IMG/VR virus record: IMGVR_UViG_3300009504_000946
Coordinates: 2,558-66,557 of that record
Length of the DNA stretch: 64,000 nucleotides
Reading direction: 5' to 3' (one strand)
Origin: a virus
The position numbers and the translations under genes were made by a program. Positions 35,447-42,112 of the stretch are shown in pieces. How positions within the stretch are numbered: position 1 is the first letter of the stretch; each line of letters starts with the position of its first letter. The notes under the pieces were generated by a model that worked only from the letters and a program-made list of their open reading frames with translations, was not told where the DNA came from and searched no databases.

Positions 35447-35453
35447 ATATTTG

Positions 35454-35537
35454 TTGTGCAGGTAGGATTCGAACCTACAAAGGATTTCTCCATACTTGAT
35501 TCAAAGTCAAGACGCTTGCCAGTTTGCATACTGCACA
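35454..35537 (-). tRNA. Atypical tRNA-Gln(TTG) with long variable arm
   Basis: CTTGA-CTTTGAA-TCAAG; V arm TATGGAGAAATCCTTT; T arm GTAGG-TTCGAAT-CCTAC. Confidence 0.8.
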
Positions 35538-36206: not shown

Positions 36207-36291
36207 TTCTCTAATAAATAGTTTTATTTTTAATAAACTTGTTTTTGCAACAATAAACCTTGTTAGTTTATTGTGTACTTTTTACTTGTTG

Positions 36292-36373
36292 TGACCGAAG
36301 CGAGACTCGAACTCGCACGCCCTGCGGCAACGGCTTCTTAGACCGCCTTGGCTACCAATTACAACACTCGGCC
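36292..36373 (-). tRNA. tRNA-Leu(AAG)
   Basis: GCGGT-CTAAGAA-GCCGT; long V arm; A73. Confidence 0.85.
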
Positions 36374-36763: not shown

Positions 36764-37498
36764 TTATCTTTCAATATTTTTACATAATTCATTCCACCTT
36801 AAAATGGACATCCTCACATAATCTCTCCCATCTAAGCCATAAGTTCCTACGCCATATCCATCATTTACTTCTATGAGCATTGTTTCACATTTGTCTGTAA
36901 CTCCAAAGTCAATTGCATATGCAATCGGCTGTGAAGTATAATTTTTTATCGTGTCATTTATAAAGTTAAAGTCTGGAATTACCTCATGATTCCCGCTATA
37001 CTTTCTACAGTCAATCACTTTTCCTTCTGCAACAAAAACTCTATATTCAGACACAAAATTAACAACAGATGAAGTCATTATATTAAACTCATCTCCTTGC
37101 ACAGTCAAAGTAGATATATAATCCAACTCATCCTTATCTGGAATGACAAGCCCAGTAAACAACTTCAACGTTGTCGGCTTAACAAATAAAGGAAAATTTC
37201 CATTATCCTTAAAGTGTCTTACCGTACCTATTTCTATATCCCTCATTGTATACTTATACAATTCTTTTGGAATGTCAATAGGCTCTGGAACAATTACTCC
37301 AAGACTACTTAATGCATGTCTTATTGGAGTAACTCCTCCGAATACAATTGTATTCTTTGTAATATCTAAGCTGTCAATTTCATCGTAATCAAATTTTTCA
37401 GTCTTTATTCTCAAGTGCTCACAACCCAGAAAAGCTACATAAGTTGCCTCAGTTGCAAATTCACCTTTAAATGTTTGAAGATATGCTTTTTCTATCAT
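36764..37498 (-). CDS. ATP-grasp domain protein (DUF4343/R2K-like)
   Basis: FVKP..KLFTG, SEYRVFV, AIDFG, IEVND. Confidence 0.8.
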   Translation of the reverse strand: MIEKAYLQTFKGEFATEATYVAFLGCEHLRIKTEKFDYDEIDSLDITKNTIVFGGVTPIRHALSSLGVIVPEPIDIPKELYKYTMRDIEIGTVRHFKDNGNFPLFVKPTTLKLFTGLVIPDKDELDYISTLTVQGDEFNIMTSSVVNFVSEYRVFVAEGKVIDCRKYSGNHEVIPDFNFINDTIKNYTSQPIAYAIDFGVTDKCETMLIEVNDGYGVGTYGLDGRDYVRMSILRWNELCKNIER

Positions 37499-37544: not shown

Positions 37545-38306
37545 TTACATATCTTCGAGTGCCATAATTAACTTTTGCATGTCAGCATCGTAAAATCCAG
37601 CACAAGAAGTGCTTCCACACTCAACTATCTTCCATCCATTATCAGTAAGACAAACATCAATTACAAATGTATCAGCAAGTTGATATATGTCCACCATATC
37701 CTGAGCAAAATCTAAAGCATCTTGGTCAACTATGTTATCATAAACCAAGAAACTACCACGCCTATAAGTACTCTGTGTTACTATTTTTCCTTTTACAACC
37801 CAACATCTAACTTCTTGCGTAATTCTCTTTGGAACCGCTACTTGAATCTTAGAATCAAACCTTAGCGTTGTATCCTCTTGATGTGAAAGCATTCTATCTT
37901 TAAATTTATCCCATTCAGTTTTTTCATATACCTTGCCAGTAAAAGATTTTGAATCAAGGCATGGTCTTATAAAATGCTGGTCGCACTTCCAATCAAAGTC
38001 ATCTCCAAAATCAATAACCCTTGAGTCATAATTTAAAAGATTATCCTTATAATATTTTGAATACACGTTGTAATCGTGATTTTCAGTTATTAATGCACCT
38101 GGAGTCCAAGAATATTTTTTTGACAATCTCGCCAACTTAAGAGAACCAAAAACAAATACATCTTTCCTATCTGTCTTAAATTCGACTTCTTCTACAAAAG
38201 GGAAAACTGTAACCAATTCATGACTTATGTCAAACTTATTAAGACAGTTCATTAACTTAGCATGACCTTCTTCTCTAAATAAATTTTCTTGTACAATATA
38301 ATGCAT
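37545..38306 (-). CDS. ATP-grasp domain protein (DUF4343/R2K-like)
   Basis: FIRP..DSKSFTG, EVRCWVV, VIDVC, KIVE; start MHYIVQ (the track extension overlaps a tRNA). Confidence 0.8.
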   Translation of the reverse strand: MHYIVQENLFREEGHAKLMNCLNKFDISHELVTVFPFVEEVEFKTDRKDVFVFGSLKLARLSKKYSWTPGALITENHDYNVYSKYYKDNLLNYDSRVIDFGDDFDWKCDQHFIRPCLDSKSFTGKVYEKTEWDKFKDRMLSHQEDTTLRFDSKIQVAVPKRITQEVRCWVVKGKIVTQSTYRRGSFLVYDNIVDQDALDFAQDMVDIYQLADTFVIDVCLTDNGWKIVECGSTSCAGFYDADMQKLIMALEDM

Positions 38307-38322
38307 AATCTTTAATTTTTTG

Positions 38323-38405
38323 TAGCCCAGGCGAGAATCGAACTCGCACTCCACAAGGGAACAGAATTTTAAGTCCTGCGTGTCTACCAGTTTCACCACT
38401 GGGCC
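38323..38405 (-). tRNA. tRNA-Leu(TAA), long V arm
   Basis: CAGGA-CTTAAAA-TTCTG. Confidence 0.9.
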
Positions 38406-38479
38406 ATTTTTTAATATGAGTGTTCATTATCCCAATCTATTCACGTAATGTGAACACTCCAAAATAATGAACAATCTTG

Positions 38480-38560
38480 TACCGATGGAGAGAGTCGAAC
38501 TCTCACGCCTTTAGGCACTGGGTTTTGAATCCAGCGTGTCTACCATTCCACCACATCGGC
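38480..38560 (-). tRNA. tRNA-Leu(CAA), long V arm
   Basis: CTGGA-TTCAAAA-CCCAG. Confidence 0.9.
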
Positions 38561-38574
38561 ATATGCTGAGGCTT

Positions 38575-39126
38575 TCACTCAGCTGCTTTATATTTTCTAA
38601 AAGTCAAACTTACTCTCGGACCACAATCTCTATCATGCTTTGGAATCCTGTGTAAGTGTGTGTCTTGGAATCCTGGAGGCATGTAAAACAATGAGCCATT
38701 TTCTAACTTCCTTTTATTCTCATCTGGGACCATACCCTTTTCCCCTTTTTCTTTCCACCATATTTCTCTCTCTGCCCCAAATGACACAACTGCAATTCCA
38801 TCATTGTGGTCAATTGAGTGAGAATCATCAGCGTGCCATCCTAATCCATTTCTTGAGCTAACATACATGTTTAAGAAGCAAATATCCAAGCTTGTTCCTA
38901 ACTTCTCATTCACCTTATCCATTATAGACTTAACTATAGGAATCATTGGAGTTGACTTATAGGTAGGAGCTCCGCTGTGGTCTAAGTAAGAATATTCAAT
39001 GTCAGAGTTTGCCATAAAGCACTCTCTTCTCATCTTTGTCTCATCAACCCAACTTACTTCCTTCACTAATGTGTCAATAAAGTCTTCGTCAATTAACTTG
39101 TCTATGTAAACTAAATTTTTCATCAT
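38575..39126 (-). CDS. AlkB-like 2OG-Fe(II) dioxygenase
   Basis: LNMY, GWHADD, VSFGAER, HRIPK, RVSLTFR. Confidence 0.9.
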   Translation of the reverse strand: MMKNLVYIDKLIDEDFIDTLVKEVSWVDETKMRRECFMANSDIEYSYLDHSGAPTYKSTPMIPIVKSIMDKVNEKLGTSLDICFLNMYVSSRNGLGWHADDSHSIDHNDGIAVVSFGAEREIWWKEKGEKGMVPDENKRKLENGSLFYMPPGFQDTHLHRIPKHDRDCGPRVSLTFRKYKAAE

Positions 39127-39137
39127 TTTTATTTTTG

Positions 39138-39211
39138 TGACCCCTATGGAATTCGAATCCATACTATACGCTGTTTAAGAACGTTGCCTCTGCCTATTGG
39201 GCTAAGGGGCC
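39138..39211 (-). tRNA. tRNA with Leu(TAA) anticodon and short V loop
   Basis: ACGTT-CTTAAAC-AGCGT; 5-nt variable loop ATAGT. Confidence 0.85.
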
Positions 39212-39219
39212 AAATCTTG

Positions 39220-39317
39220 TGTGTTGAGCAGGATTCGAACCTACAATAAGGAGATACTGCGCAATATCTTTATCCTCACGACTAAATCGCATGTCTAACC
39301 TCTTTCATCATCAACAC
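39220..39317 (-). ncRNA. Atypical tRNA-like RNA (Leu-type D loop, shrunken anticodon loop, very long V arm)
   Basis: 7-bp acceptor GTGTTGA/TCAACAC, T arm GTAGG-TTCGAAT-CCTGC, arm GCGA-TTTAG-TCGT. Confidence 0.65.
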
Positions 39318-39318
39318 A

Positions 39319-39395
39319 TGGTACACCTGGAGGGAGTCGAACCCCCAACCTCACGAGTCGTAATCGTGTGCTCTATCCAGTTGAGCTACAGGTGC
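39319..39395 (-). tRNA. tRNA-Arg(ACG), CCA encoded
   Basis: CACGA-TTACGAC-TCGTG. Confidence 0.93.
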
Positions 39396-39405
39396 ATATT
39401 TCCGA

Positions 39406-39729
39406 TTACTCGGAAACTTTTATAAATTCACCAGACTTAATTGCCTTTCCAATCCATCTGTTAAGCTCAGAACCTCTCATCTCCGCTGAGAAAGTTGTTG
39501 TCCCAAGGTCTGCAGACAATGTTGTAACTACATCTGGTTCCTTAACTTCTGCACCAACTTCTAAAGTTGATACATGATGTGTAACTTCAACGTCAATAGT
39601 CGAAATAGGAAATTGATAAACTCCACCTTCCAACTTTACAGTGTAATATAAATTACCACTCACATAGTGACTAAGCTTAGCCATCTCTTTGCTTTTAAAA
39701 AGCTCTTTTTTTACTTCTAACTCGTTCAT
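39406..39729 (-). CDS. Hypothetical protein
   Basis: ORF between tRNAs. Confidence 0.6.
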   Translation of the reverse strand: MNELEVKKELFKSKEMAKLSHYVSGNLYYTVKLEGGVYQFPISTIDVEVTHHVSTLEVGAEVKEPDVVTTLSADLGTTTFSAEMRGSELNRWIGKAIKSGEFIKVSE

Positions 39730-39745
39730 TTCTTATAAAGTTATG

Positions 39746-39818
39746 TAGGACTTACAGGGCTTGAACCTGCGACCTCTTGCATGTCATACAAGCGCTCTAC
39801 CAACTGAGCTAAAGTCCT
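39746..39818 (-). tRNA. tRNA-Val(GAC)
   Basis: CTTGT-ATGACAT-GCAAG; 5' end overlaps the leuS stop. Confidence 0.9.
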
Positions 39819-41098
39819 GTATTAAAATTTGGAGCAAAACACCTTACTATTTCTGTAAGTGCAGCAGCTGTGCTCCCTGTCAACTGCTTATTCTTATTTT
39901 TATTGTAGAATTCCATCAAAGTGCTTATTACCTTATTAAACTTGAAGGATTCTACATATCCATCAATAGTATATTGCAAATCAATTATATCTTTAGCGGT
40001 TACACCCTCACTTACACCCTCACTTACACCCTCAATCCATCTATTCCATTTACCTAAAGCCCTTCTTATTCCACTAATCTTTGAGTCATCCCAATCTCCG
40101 CCTTCGAAGTAGTGTCCAATGAACATCAAGTACATTCTCAACTCATCTGGGTCGTAGTCATCTGGGTTTACAACATTCCCAATTGACTTTGACATCTTGA
40201 CCCCATCTTTGGTAATCATTCCCTGGTGAATCAATTTCTTGAATGGTTCCTCACATGTAACAATTCCTTGGTCATACAAGAACATATTAATAAATCTTGC
40301 ATAAATCAAGTGCATGCATGCATGTTCATTTCCACCAACATACAAGTCCACTTGTTTGTATTCATCCTTAGGCAAAAACTCACTATCACTATCTGTCAAA
40401 TATCTCAAGTAGTAAAATGAGCTATCAACAAATGTATCCAAAGTATCAGTTTCTCCATCTACAGGAATTGGACATCCCCAACTCCTCTGTCTTGATACAC
40501 ACCAATCATTCAAATTCTCAAGCCAGTGTCTCTGTTGCTTCTTTGTCTTCTCTGGGTAGTCAATCCAATCCAAGTTTTTAATCAACCTGTCTTTATAATC
40601 TGTAATTTTAAAGAACCACTGATTCAACTCTCTTACCTCAACTTGCGACTTACATCTATCACACTTCTCCTCTTTTACCTGCTCATTTGCCAATACAGTT
40701 TCACAACTTGGGCAGTAATTTACTGGAGCAACTTTCTTATAAGCCAATCCAGCATCTTTCAACTTCAAGAACAACCACTGTGTCCATTTTTGATAGCTTG
40801 GGTCAGATGTAACCAATTTCTCTTCAAATTGAGTATTCATATTCTGCATCTGCCACCTAAATCTCTCAATGTTCTTATAGGTTATTCTCCTTGGGTCTCC
40901 ACCTTCTTTCTTGGCCTGGTTTTCTGCAGGCAATCCGAATGAGTCATATCCAAAAGGTTGGAACACGCTTATTCCTTTAAAATTTTTCCATCTGCAGTAA
41001 GAATCAATTACCGCATAATTGTAAGCATGTCCAACATGCAAACCATCACCTGAAGGATATGGAAACATTGTCAAGCAGTAAAAATCTTCCTCTTTCAT
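39809..41098 (-). CDS. leuS: Minimal leucyl-tRNA synthetase (no CP1 editing domain, no C-terminal domain), 429 aa
   Basis: MFPYPSGDGLHVGH, DSFGLPAEN, DWCVSRQRSWG, DTLDTFVDSS, GGNEHACMHLIYARF, KMSKSIGN; start MKEEDF. Confidence 0.92.
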   Translation of the reverse strand: MKEEDFYCLTMFPYPSGDGLHVGHAYNYAVIDSYCRWKNFKGISVFQPFGYDSFGLPAENQAKKEGGDPRRITYKNIERFRWQMQNMNTQFEEKLVTSDPSYQKWTQWLFLKLKDAGLAYKKVAPVNYCPSCETVLANEQVKEEKCDRCKSQVEVRELNQWFFKITDYKDRLIKNLDWIDYPEKTKKQQRHWLENLNDWCVSRQRSWGCPIPVDGETDTLDTFVDSSFYYLRYLTDSDSEFLPKDEYKQVDLYVGGNEHACMHLIYARFINMFLYDQGIVTCEEPFKKLIHQGMITKDGVKMSKSIGNVVNPDDYDPDELRMYLMFIGHYFEGGDWDDSKISGIRRALGKWNRWIEGVSEGVSEGVTAKDIIDLQYTIDGYVESFKFNKVISTLMEFYNKNKNKQLTGSTAAALTEIVRCFAPNFNTGL

Positions 41099-41108
41099 AA
41101 TCTTTTTT

Positions 41109-41251
41109 TTGCGCTTGCGCCAGTGAGCAAAGCGAGTTGTAGGACAGGAGGGACTCGAACCCCCGACATCTTGCATGTAAAACAAGCGCTCTACCAGCTG
41201 AGCTACTATCCTATTTTTATGCGCTTGCGCCAGTGAGCGAAGCGAGTTGTA
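41109..41251. repeat. ~32-bp direct repeat forming the 3' trailers of two tRNAs
   Basis: TGCGCTTGCGCCAGTGAGCRAAGCGAGTTGTA at ~41110 and ~41220. Confidence 0.8.
41140..41212 (-). tRNA. tRNA-Val(TAC)
   Basis: CTTGT-TTTACAT-GCAAG. Confidence 0.9.
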
Positions 41252-41323
41252 CCCTCTGTCAGATTCGAACTGACACTGTATGGCTTCTAAGGCCATCGCC
41301 TCTACCAATTGGGCTAAGAGGGC
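41250..41323 (-). tRNA. tRNA with Leu(TAG) anticodon and short V loop
   Basis: ATGGC-CTTAGAA-GCCAT; 5-nt variable loop ACAGT. Confidence 0.85.
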
Positions 41324-41376
41324 ATTTCTATTGTTGGCCAAATGTGGTATTTAACTTCTACATTTGGCCACTTTTG

Positions 41377-41753: not shown

Positions 41754-41830
41754 TGGTACGGACGAGAGTCGAACTCGTGACCTCTGGGGTTTCAAGCCAG
41801 CGCTCTACCAAAAAACTGAGCTACCATACC
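41754..41830 (-). tRNA. tRNA-Phe(GAA), variant
   Basis: Loop TTGAAAC; C31:C39 mismatch; U-rich expanded D loop. Confidence 0.8.
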
Positions 41831-41832
41831 AT

Positions 41833-41972
41833 AAAATTTAGGGGAAAGTTTGAGAGAGTGTAAACCCCTGAAGGGGCTCGACAGGACTTGAACCTGTAAC
41901 AGTTTGTGTTTAAGACAAATGCGCTACCAATTGCGCAACGAAGTAACTCTTACTCATCACCACCTAAATTTT
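41833..41972 (-). ncRNA. Y-RNA-like RNA carrying a tRNA (TAA anticodon) D/anticodon/T module
   Basis: Outer stem AAATTTAGG/CCTAAATTT, internal loop TGGTGA/AACTTTCC, inner stem, TACTTCG, then tRNA arms with a broken acceptor. Confidence 0.55.
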
Positions 41973-41976
41973 TTTG

Positions 41977-42112
41977 TGGAGGGGGCTGGACTCGAACCAG
42001 CGACACGGTGCTTTCAATGCAAACGAAGTATCTCACATTCTCACCACTAACAAAAGGGAAAACGAAGTAAGGTTTTTTTTCTAACCTGCTCTACCAACTG
42101 AGCTACCCCTCC
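41977..42112 (-). ncRNA. Phe-like tRNA with a ~60-nt Y-RNA-like insertion in the anticodon arm
   Basis: Perfect acceptor GGAGGGG/CCCCTCC, D and T arms; insert carries the TTTTCC, TGGTGA and TACTTCG motifs. Confidence 0.6.

Follow-up and report, generated by a model that had tools for sequence, protein, structure and literature searches.

The locus described here raises the question of what a very short leucyl-tRNA synthetase (LeuRS) gene is doing between two tRNA-Leu genes that lack the long variable arm, and whether the enzyme and these tRNAs form a dedicated pair. It lies in a window of 64,000 nucleotides, the whole stretch of DNA that was analyzed, which corresponds to positions 2,558 to 66,557 of the IMG/VR virus record IMGVR_UViG_3300009504_000946. 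A preliminary description of the window proposed an orthogonal LeuRS-tRNA pair. The explanation that we regard as probable is that the gene encodes a streamlined phage LeuRS, hereafter mini-LeuRS, which would charge any tRNA with the bacterial leucine identity set and would do so without post-transfer editing, the armless tRNA-Leu genes being independent of it. Below, the labels G, L and P denote viral records, loci and proteins, respectively.

The gene product (P0001; Table 1) was confirmed to be a bacterial-type class Ia LeuRS by its motifs, sequence and fold. H21, G23 and H24 were invariant among 47 aligned family members, and the HIGH and KMSKS positions as a whole were invariant or nearly so. 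The CxxC...CxxC knuckle is made up of CPSC at residue 129 and CDRC at residue 146. Among the sequences of solved structures, LeuRS chains matched P0001 at E values of 1e-87 to 2e-68, compared to 1e-27 for the best MetRS and 1e-21 for the best IleRS. The best match was the Mycoplasma mobile LeuRS (3ziu; E 9.9e-88), with other bacterial LeuRS at E 2e-80 to 2e-68. An AlphaFold2 model built on the 47 family members gave a predicted local distance difference test (pLDDT) score of 91.8 and a predicted template-modeling (pTM) score of 0.91. When this model was searched with Foldseek, the top 48 matches were all LeuRS, with template-modeling (TM) scores of 0.90 to the M. mobile enzyme and 0.82-0.87 to other bacterial LeuRS. 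M. mobile, which had been put forward as the precedent for a LeuRS without the editing domain CP1, was thus the best match in both sequence and fold.

The missing domains were located by alignment with the 878-residue Thermus thermophilus LeuRS (1h3n). Residues 7-194 of P0001 correspond to T. thermophilus residues 36-225, residues 193-213 to 416-436, residues 209-296 to 487-578, and residues 381-400 to 735-754. Absent relative to 1h3n are CP1 (226-415), a second insert (about 437-486), the stretch from residue 578 to KMSKS, which is the leucine-specific domain, and everything after about residue 785. The preliminary description had the chain passing from ..QQRHW directly onward with CP1 deleted, and this is exactly the arrangement in QQRHWLENLNDWCVSRQR, which spans residues 188-205. 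Its claim that the C-terminal domain (CTD) is lacking also held, as the chain ends approximately 95 residues short of the end of the T. thermophilus enzyme. In an alignment with 33 cellular LeuRS, P0001 showed a gap after residue 193 (162 columns) and another after residue 194 (281 columns), large gaps also after residues 213 and 301, and 103 columns beyond its last residue. Pfam matched only class I catalytic families in P0001 (PF00133, E 5e-42); neither the editing family PF13603 nor an anticodon-binding family was found by it. Supply of the missing domains in trans was considered and rejected. The 33 cellular LeuRS provided hidden Markov models for CP1 (190 positions) and for the CTD (87 positions), which were searched against 16,451 open reading frames (ORFs) of at least 40 residues; these came from the window's contig, from G070 and G075 in full and from the LeuRS loci. 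In this set the CTD model had no match at E<=1, and all matches of the CP1 model fell within the LeuRS-like ORFs of L011, L270 and L272.

The same reduced architecture was found well beyond this contig. Homologs of P0001 at E<=1e-20 accounted for 7904 of the 8000 scored candidates, and the best 120 were 66-93% identical to it. Since 117 of these 120 are 405-455 residues long, the short length was deduced to be a family trait rather than a truncation peculiar to this contig. When viral contigs were scanned with a profile, 58 loci were found; one of them, L272, proved to encode an IleRS-like ORF of 944 residues and was removed, leaving mini-LeuRS at 57 viral loci, many in contigs of 200-600 kb. 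The closest relative in the phage collection is a 422-residue ORF of LR745206.1 (634,780 bp), which is 63% identical, and another is a 508-residue ORF of LR756501.1 (735,411 bp), which is 34.5% identical, keeps the second insert and has no PF13603. When 185,579 prokaryotic species, each represented by one genome, were searched, the mini form was present in 1 of the best 80 loci, a 2.9-kb contig binned with a Bacteroidota metagenome-assembled genome. At the other loci among these 80, only residues 3-193 aligned in one piece, as expected for CP1-bearing enzymes. On these comparisons, mini-LeuRS looks like a large, conserved and phage-specific family, and its sequences clearly point to selection.

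The route by which CP1 was lost is suggested by the LeuRS relatives of L011-L013 and L270, which have 526-541 residues and a partial PF13603 match (E 1e-20) exactly at the CP1 site. The shortened CP1 of these proteins (L011-L013, 10001-11557, and L270) keeps the TTKPET and GYGT..MGVPNDD motifs. They look like an intermediate stage of editing-domain loss, and because the partial domain is kept, the family is deduced to descend from a CP1-bearing LeuRS that lost the domain stepwise. Other variants of the gene were also observed. A second partial copy of the C-terminal third of LeuRS lies 1 kb downstream of the full gene in G056 (86091-86399; L007, 12204-12509), is 56-57% identical to residues 322-428 and has one TAA stop inside. 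The homolog P0056, of 616 residues, is fused to the kinase-like domains PF01121/PF13238.

The LeuRS gene is flanked by two 75-nt tRNA-Leu genes (UAA and UAG) in which the long variable arm is absent, whereas it is present in the window's other three tRNA-Leu genes. In both flanking tRNAs the acceptor stem is 7 bp long, the GCCC/AGGC D arm carries an AAU(U/A)GG(U/C)AG loop, the variable loop is 5 nt and position 73 is A, and the minimum-energy fold of both is a cloverleaf. Their earlier characterization as class-I-shaped tRNA-Leu with such D arms and 5-nt variable loops was borne out by the ARAGORN typing and by the folds. Their loci had also been given correctly, although each 5' end was one base off (ARAGORN positions in Table 1). 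The rest of that description of the locus was sound, except that the three long-arm tRNA-Leu genes in the array and the loss of the leucine-specific domain had been overlooked.

The identity elements for E. coli LeuRS are reported to be A73, the A15-U48 pair and G18G19; neither the anticodon nor the long arm is among them, and variants without the arm stay active (passages of PMC9976931). In eight aligned armless tRNA-Leu from the window, LR756501, L004 and L007, A14, A15, U48 and A73 were invariant. A larger set of 39 armless and 59 long-arm tRNA-Leu was chosen without a sequence pattern. A73 was found in 39/39 armless and 59/59 long-arm members, A14 in 36/39 and 59/59, A15 in 34/39 and 58/59, and U48 in 34/39 and 59/59, while position 9 was A in 25/39 armless and G in 57/59 long-arm tRNAs. 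As read from these sequences, both forms retain the bacterial leucine identity set (A73 and A15:U48). The armless genes are not all of one type. Some, such as the caa gene of L004 with a GGUGAAAUUGGUAAACAC D arm and U8-G9, look like recent derivatives of long-arm genes, whereas others are of the GCCC...AGGC type with U8-A9, which suggests that the arm was lost more than once. Armless tRNA-Leu genes (tag, cag and caa) with a GGUGCAAYUCC T loop and a GGCAGACAGCAGACC D arm were observed in G002 (L028, L041) and represent a third sequence type.

At least 119 viral stretches matched the armless pattern (GCCC...AGGC type, UAA or UAG anticodon, short loop). ARAGORN typed 104 unique tRNA-Leu among these matches, of which 94 have A73; the variable loop is 5 nt long in 84 of the 104, 4 nt in 19 of them and 6 nt in the remaining one. 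Several of the contigs have an armless tRNA-Leu as their sole tRNA. Cultured phages also carry similar tRNAs: 7 records are from Lactobacillus phages, 5 from Mycobacterium phages, 3 from Bacillus phages and 1 from an Escherichia phage. In the Lactobacillus phage Bacchae, three tRNA-Leu (tag, taa and caa) are armless, and the tRNA-Ser retain the arm. A LeuRS relative was present in none of the 119 armless loci listed. Among 50 whole armless-tRNA records, drawn from the matches listed, none matched P0001 at E<=1e-5, including 0/16 of those at least 90% complete; the same search recovered 5/5 known carriers as a positive control. Likewise, a LeuRS match was found in 52 phage records, none of which belongs to a phage of Lactobacillus, Mycobacterium or Bacillus. 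Since these records have no LeuRS, their armless tRNAs must be usable with host LeuRS alone. Armless tRNA-Leu is most simply taken as a separate phage trait, much more widespread than mini-LeuRS.

The converse arrangement was also found. G070 (482 kb, 100% complete) carries LeuRS with four tRNA-Leu genes, all long-arm and three of them directly upstream of LeuRS; G075 (271 kb, 89% complete) carries LeuRS with three, all long-arm; and G076 (519 kb, terminal repeats, 100% complete) carries LeuRS with four, all with variable regions of at least 10 nt, among 49 tRNAs recovered. Within 10 kb of the 58 loci, tRNA genes of any kind were found at 23 and tRNA-Leu at 15, with long-arm forms at 15/15 and armless forms at 10/15 of the latter. 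Within 2 kb of the LeuRS gene, 38/80 tRNAs were tRNA-Leu, compared to 4/55 genome-wide in G070. The nearest tRNA was a tRNA-Leu in 9/22 loci (7 long-arm, 2 armless).

From the architecture, conservation, distribution and clustering with tRNA-Leu genes, we infer that the gene encodes a catalytically active, streamlined and phage-specific LeuRS within a huge-phage tRNA island. The protein keeps the full bacterial-type catalytic core, with HIGH, KMSKS and the conserved stretches at the leucine and adenylate site. CP1 has been lost cleanly at its two linker strands, with TKDG taking the place of the leucine-specific domain, and the chain ends within the helical domain, which leaves no C-terminal elbow-binding domain. 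Predicted substrates are any tRNAs with A73, the A15:U48 pair and G18G19 in a Leu-type D loop, both long-arm and armless, encoded by the phage and probably also by the host. Leucylation without post-transfer editing would give a greater supply of Leu-tRNA for phage translation. The armless tRNA-Leu would be class II tRNA-Leu minus the arm with the identity set retained, and because bacterial LeuRS needs no arm, ordinary host LeuRS could charge them as well. Enzyme and armless tRNAs would then meet in tRNA-rich huge phages, with neither dependent on the other.

Several observations weigh against this explanation. Deletion of the CTD abolished aminoacylation by E. coli and T. thermophilus LeuRS (passages of PMC3561953), and a natural enzyme without it would therefore need a compensation not seen here or have another role. 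No neighboring gene is conserved beside LeuRS, and the search of the ORF set described above recovered neither CTD nor CP1 as a free-standing domain. The neighbors of LeuRS differed across 10 loci, so that a conserved partner gene was rejected; a 107-residue ORF at 39406-39729 recurs only in L004 and, distant from LeuRS, in G070. The remaining points concern the tRNAs. The same anticodon occurs in both forms within one genome (UAA in the window, UAG in LR756501 and UAA in L004), which argues against simple redundancy of the two forms. Finally, armless tRNA-Leu was found in 17/21 LeuRS-positive records with any tRNA-Leu versus 1/4 LeuRS-negative relatives, and some functional preference of the enzyme for armless tRNAs is therefore conceivable.

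The first of these points bears on a reading in which the protein is a non-aminoacylating paralog that activates leucine or binds tRNA-Leu for regulation or Leu-AMP chemistry, which we consider unlikely. Besides the loss of charging on CTD deletion, it could draw on the archaeal LeuRS-I, in which CP1 is disrupted and the C terminus divergent and which makes the adenylate and binds tRNA but cannot aminoacylate (passages of PMC9437257), and on the kinase-like fusion in P0056. It is opposed by the invariant or nearly invariant HIGH and KMSKS positions, the intact fold and the tight clustering with tRNA-Leu genes within 2 kb. Furthermore, an active synthetase with the same two deletions is known from M. 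mobile (passages of PMC3643597).

The association between enzyme and armless tRNAs was scrutinized further. The 17 armless-positive records are the window, LR756501, LR745206, G001, G055, G002, G056, G004, G068, G072 and G073, and those of L231, L233, L234, L235, L237 and L271; L005 was left out as a near-duplicate of L004, and of the four records without armless forms, that of L229 was examined in its flank only. The LeuRS-negative relatives (G064, G065, G066 and G069) were picked by an unrelated marker protein. Armless tRNA-Leu was present in G064; none was found in G066 and G069, which are complete and had all model matches typed, nor in G065 among the strongest matches typed. The model used, R1, was rejected as an armless-specific detector, as other tRNAs score up to 66 bits, and for this reason every R1 match needed typing with ARAGORN. 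Records searched at a strict threshold (G065, G071 and G074) may conceal divergent armless tRNAs, and many viral records are fragments. No tRNA-Leu of any form was found in five LeuRS-positive fragments (G003 and G057-G060; 19-52% complete). The one-sided Fisher probability for 17/21 versus 1/4 is approximately 0.05, for records that are few, interrelated and unevenly searched. The association is thus suggestive of a loose, positive link.

Such a link would be accounted for if the CTD-less LeuRS and the armless tRNA-Leu had coevolved into a preferred, nonexclusive pair in the phages that carry both, the arm reader and the arm both being discarded. We consider this improbable. If it were true, a leucine channel would persist when host LeuRS or host class II tRNA-Leu is shut off or attacked, the UAA and UAG armless tRNAs alone would decode the six leucine codons, and G070-like phages would represent an earlier state.

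A stricter version is the dedicated or orthogonal pair originally proposed, in which the CTD-less LeuRS would charge mainly armless tRNA-Leu and thereby provide a private leucine channel, with UAA and UAG serving all six leucine codons. The premise that the CTD contacts the tRNA elbow and variable arm agrees with passages of PMC3561953, in which the LeuRS CTD binds the tRNA at the G19:C56 elbow and, through an arginine in a bacterial LeuRS, contacts nucleotide 47h of its long arm. Consistent with such a pair are the 17/21 versus 1/4 distribution, co-occurrence even in LR756501 with its distant LeuRS, armless sets that usually comprise UAA and UAG, and the keeping of the same anticodon in both forms in one genome. 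Nevertheless, the proposal fails on co-occurrence in both directions. None of the 50 whole armless-tRNA records encodes a LeuRS, including those at least 90% complete (0/16); Bacchae with its three armless tRNA-Leu infects Lactobacillus, none of whose phages is among the 52 LeuRS-matching records; and G070, G076 and G075 hold LeuRS with long-arm tRNA-Leu only. In addition, long-arm tRNA-Leu lie at least as near to the gene as armless ones, and the armless tRNAs keep the elements read by ordinary bacterial LeuRS. The lack of LeuRS in the armless-tRNA records and the identity elements of E. coli LeuRS speak, indirectly, for cross-charging with the host pair. The co-occurrence across phages that was suggested as a check thus showed that the partners are not obligately together, and a dedicated pair was judged unlikely. 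That the ORF is a decaying remnant truncated by insertion of a tRNA-Val gene at its 3' end is hardly credible despite the stop codon inside tRNA-Val(gac) and the in-frame 12-nt repeat, since 117 of the best 120 homologs share its C-terminal end and its length, which are also found at loci with no tRNA there, the AlphaFold2 model is confident through the last helix, and no same-clade relatives with longer C termini were seen.

All genes of the region are on the minus strand (Table 1), and ARAGORN called 14 tRNAs in the window, five of which are tRNA-Leu. The LeuRS ORF as listed spans 39809..41341, beginning upstream within tRNA genes, and the ATG at 41098 is a plausible start. The family consensus is undefined at the position of the GVSEGVSEGV repeat in the 47-member alignment. 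At the other end of the gene, the last codons and TAG stop overlap tRNA-Val(gac) at 39809-39818, and cutting of the tRNA 5' end would strip the stop from the mRNA.

Table 1. Features of the mini-LeuRS locus and the surrounding tRNA array (window coordinates)
Feature	Position	Strand	Remarks
Mini leucyl-tRNA synthetase, 429 aa (P0001)	39809..41098	-	Rossmann core, CxxC...CxxC knuckle, truncated helical anticodon-binding domain
HIGH motif (HVGH, residues 21-24)	41027..41038	-	
CP1 excision point, residues 193-194 (...HWL|ENLNDW...)	40517..40522	-	T. thermophilus 226-415 without counterpart
TKDG-V-KMSKS, residues 296-305	40184..40213	-	Tetrapeptide replaces leucine-specific domain, then KMSKS loop (KMSKS at 301)
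In-frame 12-nt tandem repeat (GVSEGVSEGV, residues 357-366)	40001..40030	-	Variable loop of helical domain
Armless tRNA-Leu(UAG)	41249..41323	-	75 nt, 5-nt variable loop, A73, A15/U48; ARAGORN and Rfam tRNA, 61.8 bits
Armless tRNA-Leu(UAA)	39137..39211	-	75 nt, 5-nt variable loop, A73, A15/U48; ARAGORN and Rfam tRNA, 52.6 bits
Long-arm (class II) tRNA-Leu(CAA)	38479..38560	-	82 nt; ARAGORN
Long-arm tRNA-Leu(UAA)	38322..38405	-	84 nt; same anticodon as armless copy at 39137; ARAGORN
Long-arm tRNA-Leu(AAG)	36291..36373	-	83 nt; ARAGORN
tRNA-Val(GAC)	39745..39818	-	First 10 bases overlap last LeuRS codons and TAG stop
tRNA-Val(UAC)	41139..41212	-	Between armless tRNA-Leu(UAG) and LeuRS start; ARAGORN and Rfam
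ATP-grasp/oxygenase genes among tRNAs	36764-37498, 37545-38315, 38575-39162	-	Pfam

Other features of the array were recorded. At 35453-35537 (-), amid three ordinary 74-nt tRNA-Gln(UUG) copies in the window, lies an 85-nt tRNA-Gln(UUG) whose variable stem-loop is long and class-II-like; this form was also noted in L001 (11131-11212). Because this long-arm tRNA-Gln is present and LR745206 has an 82-nt counterpart, an arm has been gained in tRNA-Gln while it was lost in tRNA-Leu. Long forms of the Cys, Asp, Glu, Lys, His, Thr and Trp tRNAs occur in related records. Downstream of tRNA-Val(tac) and again of tRNA-Leu(tag) stands the same 19-mer, GCTCACTGGCGCAAGCGCA, at 41110-41128 and 41220-41238 (-). 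It belongs to a repeat of approximately 35 nt (2 matches versus 0 in 100 shuffles), which may be a processing or terminator element. Rfam tRNA matches with no ARAGORN call were obtained at 41977-42112, 39220-39317, 41754-41830 and 41878-41941 (-); the set comprises 136-nt and 98-nt matches resembling insertion- or intron-bearing tRNAs, a second gene resembling tRNA-Phe, whose D loop is oversized, and a partial tRNA. The protein genes interleaved with the tRNAs encode two R2K-clade ATP-grasp proteins (PF18299 and PF14243) and a 2-oxoglutarate-Fe(II) oxygenase (PF13532), and G070 has homologs of the oxygenase and of one ATP-grasp protein. In related huge phages, tRNAs with a CUA anticodon (ARAGORN type 'Pyl') were found in G070 (3 copies), G069 (L192) and the flank of L230 and are candidate amber suppressors.

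To our knowledge, 410-430 residues is the smallest natural LeuRS architecture. The family is widespread in huge phages and, because CTD removal kills the E. coli and T. thermophilus enzymes, amounts to a natural experiment on the minimal needs of a LeuRS; it also offers a compact scaffold for engineering. A natural LeuRS family working without the CTD would imply an undescribed mode of tRNA-Leu binding, and, with a phage LeuRS that has no proofreading, one may ask whether Leu/Ile/Met ambiguity is tolerated in late phage proteins. According to passages of a recent review, tRNA-Leu keeps its long arm everywhere but in animal mitochondria (PMC9976931). Phages break this rule on a large scale and with at least two sequence types, while the tRNA-Ser arm is kept in the one phage checked (Bacchae). 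Possible reasons for shedding the arm are smaller size, escape from host nucleases or modification enzymes, and avoidance of SerRS.

No paper on a CTD-less phage LeuRS and no survey of armless phage tRNA-Leu was found, apart from a single sentence in the work on mycobacterial tRNA clusters (Behra et al. 2019, PMC6582537). The passage concerned describes a short-loop tRNA-Leu(TAG) in an accessory cluster with a normal long-arm isoacceptor elsewhere in the genome, which resembles the present arrangement. That one sentence deals with one cluster, in contrast to the viral loci, at least 119 in number, and the cultured phages from three host genera that have such tRNAs here. For huge phages, up to 15 synthetases and 67 tRNAs per genome have been described (Al-Shayeb et al. 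2020, PMC7162821), and genomes of the size of LR745206.1 and LR756501.1 are among the largest of that paper. Its passages suggest that phages charge 'their own tRNA variants' and predict that the largest genomes replicate in Bacteroidetes; LeuRS domain loss and armless tRNA-Leu go unmentioned in those passages, and its supplementary tables may list these genes.

The animal mitochondrial tRNA-Leu(UUR) and tRNA-Leu(CUN) are similar to the phage tRNAs in having no long arm and the anticodons UAA and UAG, with A73 and A14 as identity elements (passages of PMC9976931). Unlike them, the phage tRNAs fold as canonical cloverleaves, have A15:U48 and a D loop of the bacterial Leu type, and coexist with long-arm isoacceptors; no sign of common descent between the two groups was seen. 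For the enzyme, the archaeal LeuRS-I, a duplicate in Sulfolobaceae, is comparable in its disrupted editing domain and altered C terminus (passages of PMC9437257). It differs in being of archaeal type, in keeping a divergent CTD and in being non-aminoacylating, whereas the phage enzyme is of bacterial type.

The closest parallel is the M. mobile LeuRS, which has neither CP1 nor the leucine-specific domain and carries a nonapeptide and the tetrapeptide GKDG instead; when substituted for CP1 and the leucine-specific domain, these linkers leave E. coli LeuRS active (passages of PMC3643597). The phage enzyme shares both deletions: ...HWLENLNDW... marks the place of CP1, and TKDG precedes KMSKS at the site of the leucine-specific domain, so that a short linker stands for CP1 and an xKDG tetrapeptide for the leucine-specific domain in each. 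The two differ in that the phage enzyme is viral rather than cellular and about 200 residues shorter (429 residues versus a 637-residue chain), has an even shorter CP1 linker and lacks a further insert (M. mobile about 269-314). M. mobile itself displays a mistranslation phenotype. Residue 405 of P0001 aligns to residue 525 of the 637 in the 3ziu chain and P0001 ends 24 residues further on, so that the phage enzyme stops at about M. mobile residue 549 and is missing the end of the helical domain as well as the CTD, both of which the cellular enzyme still has.

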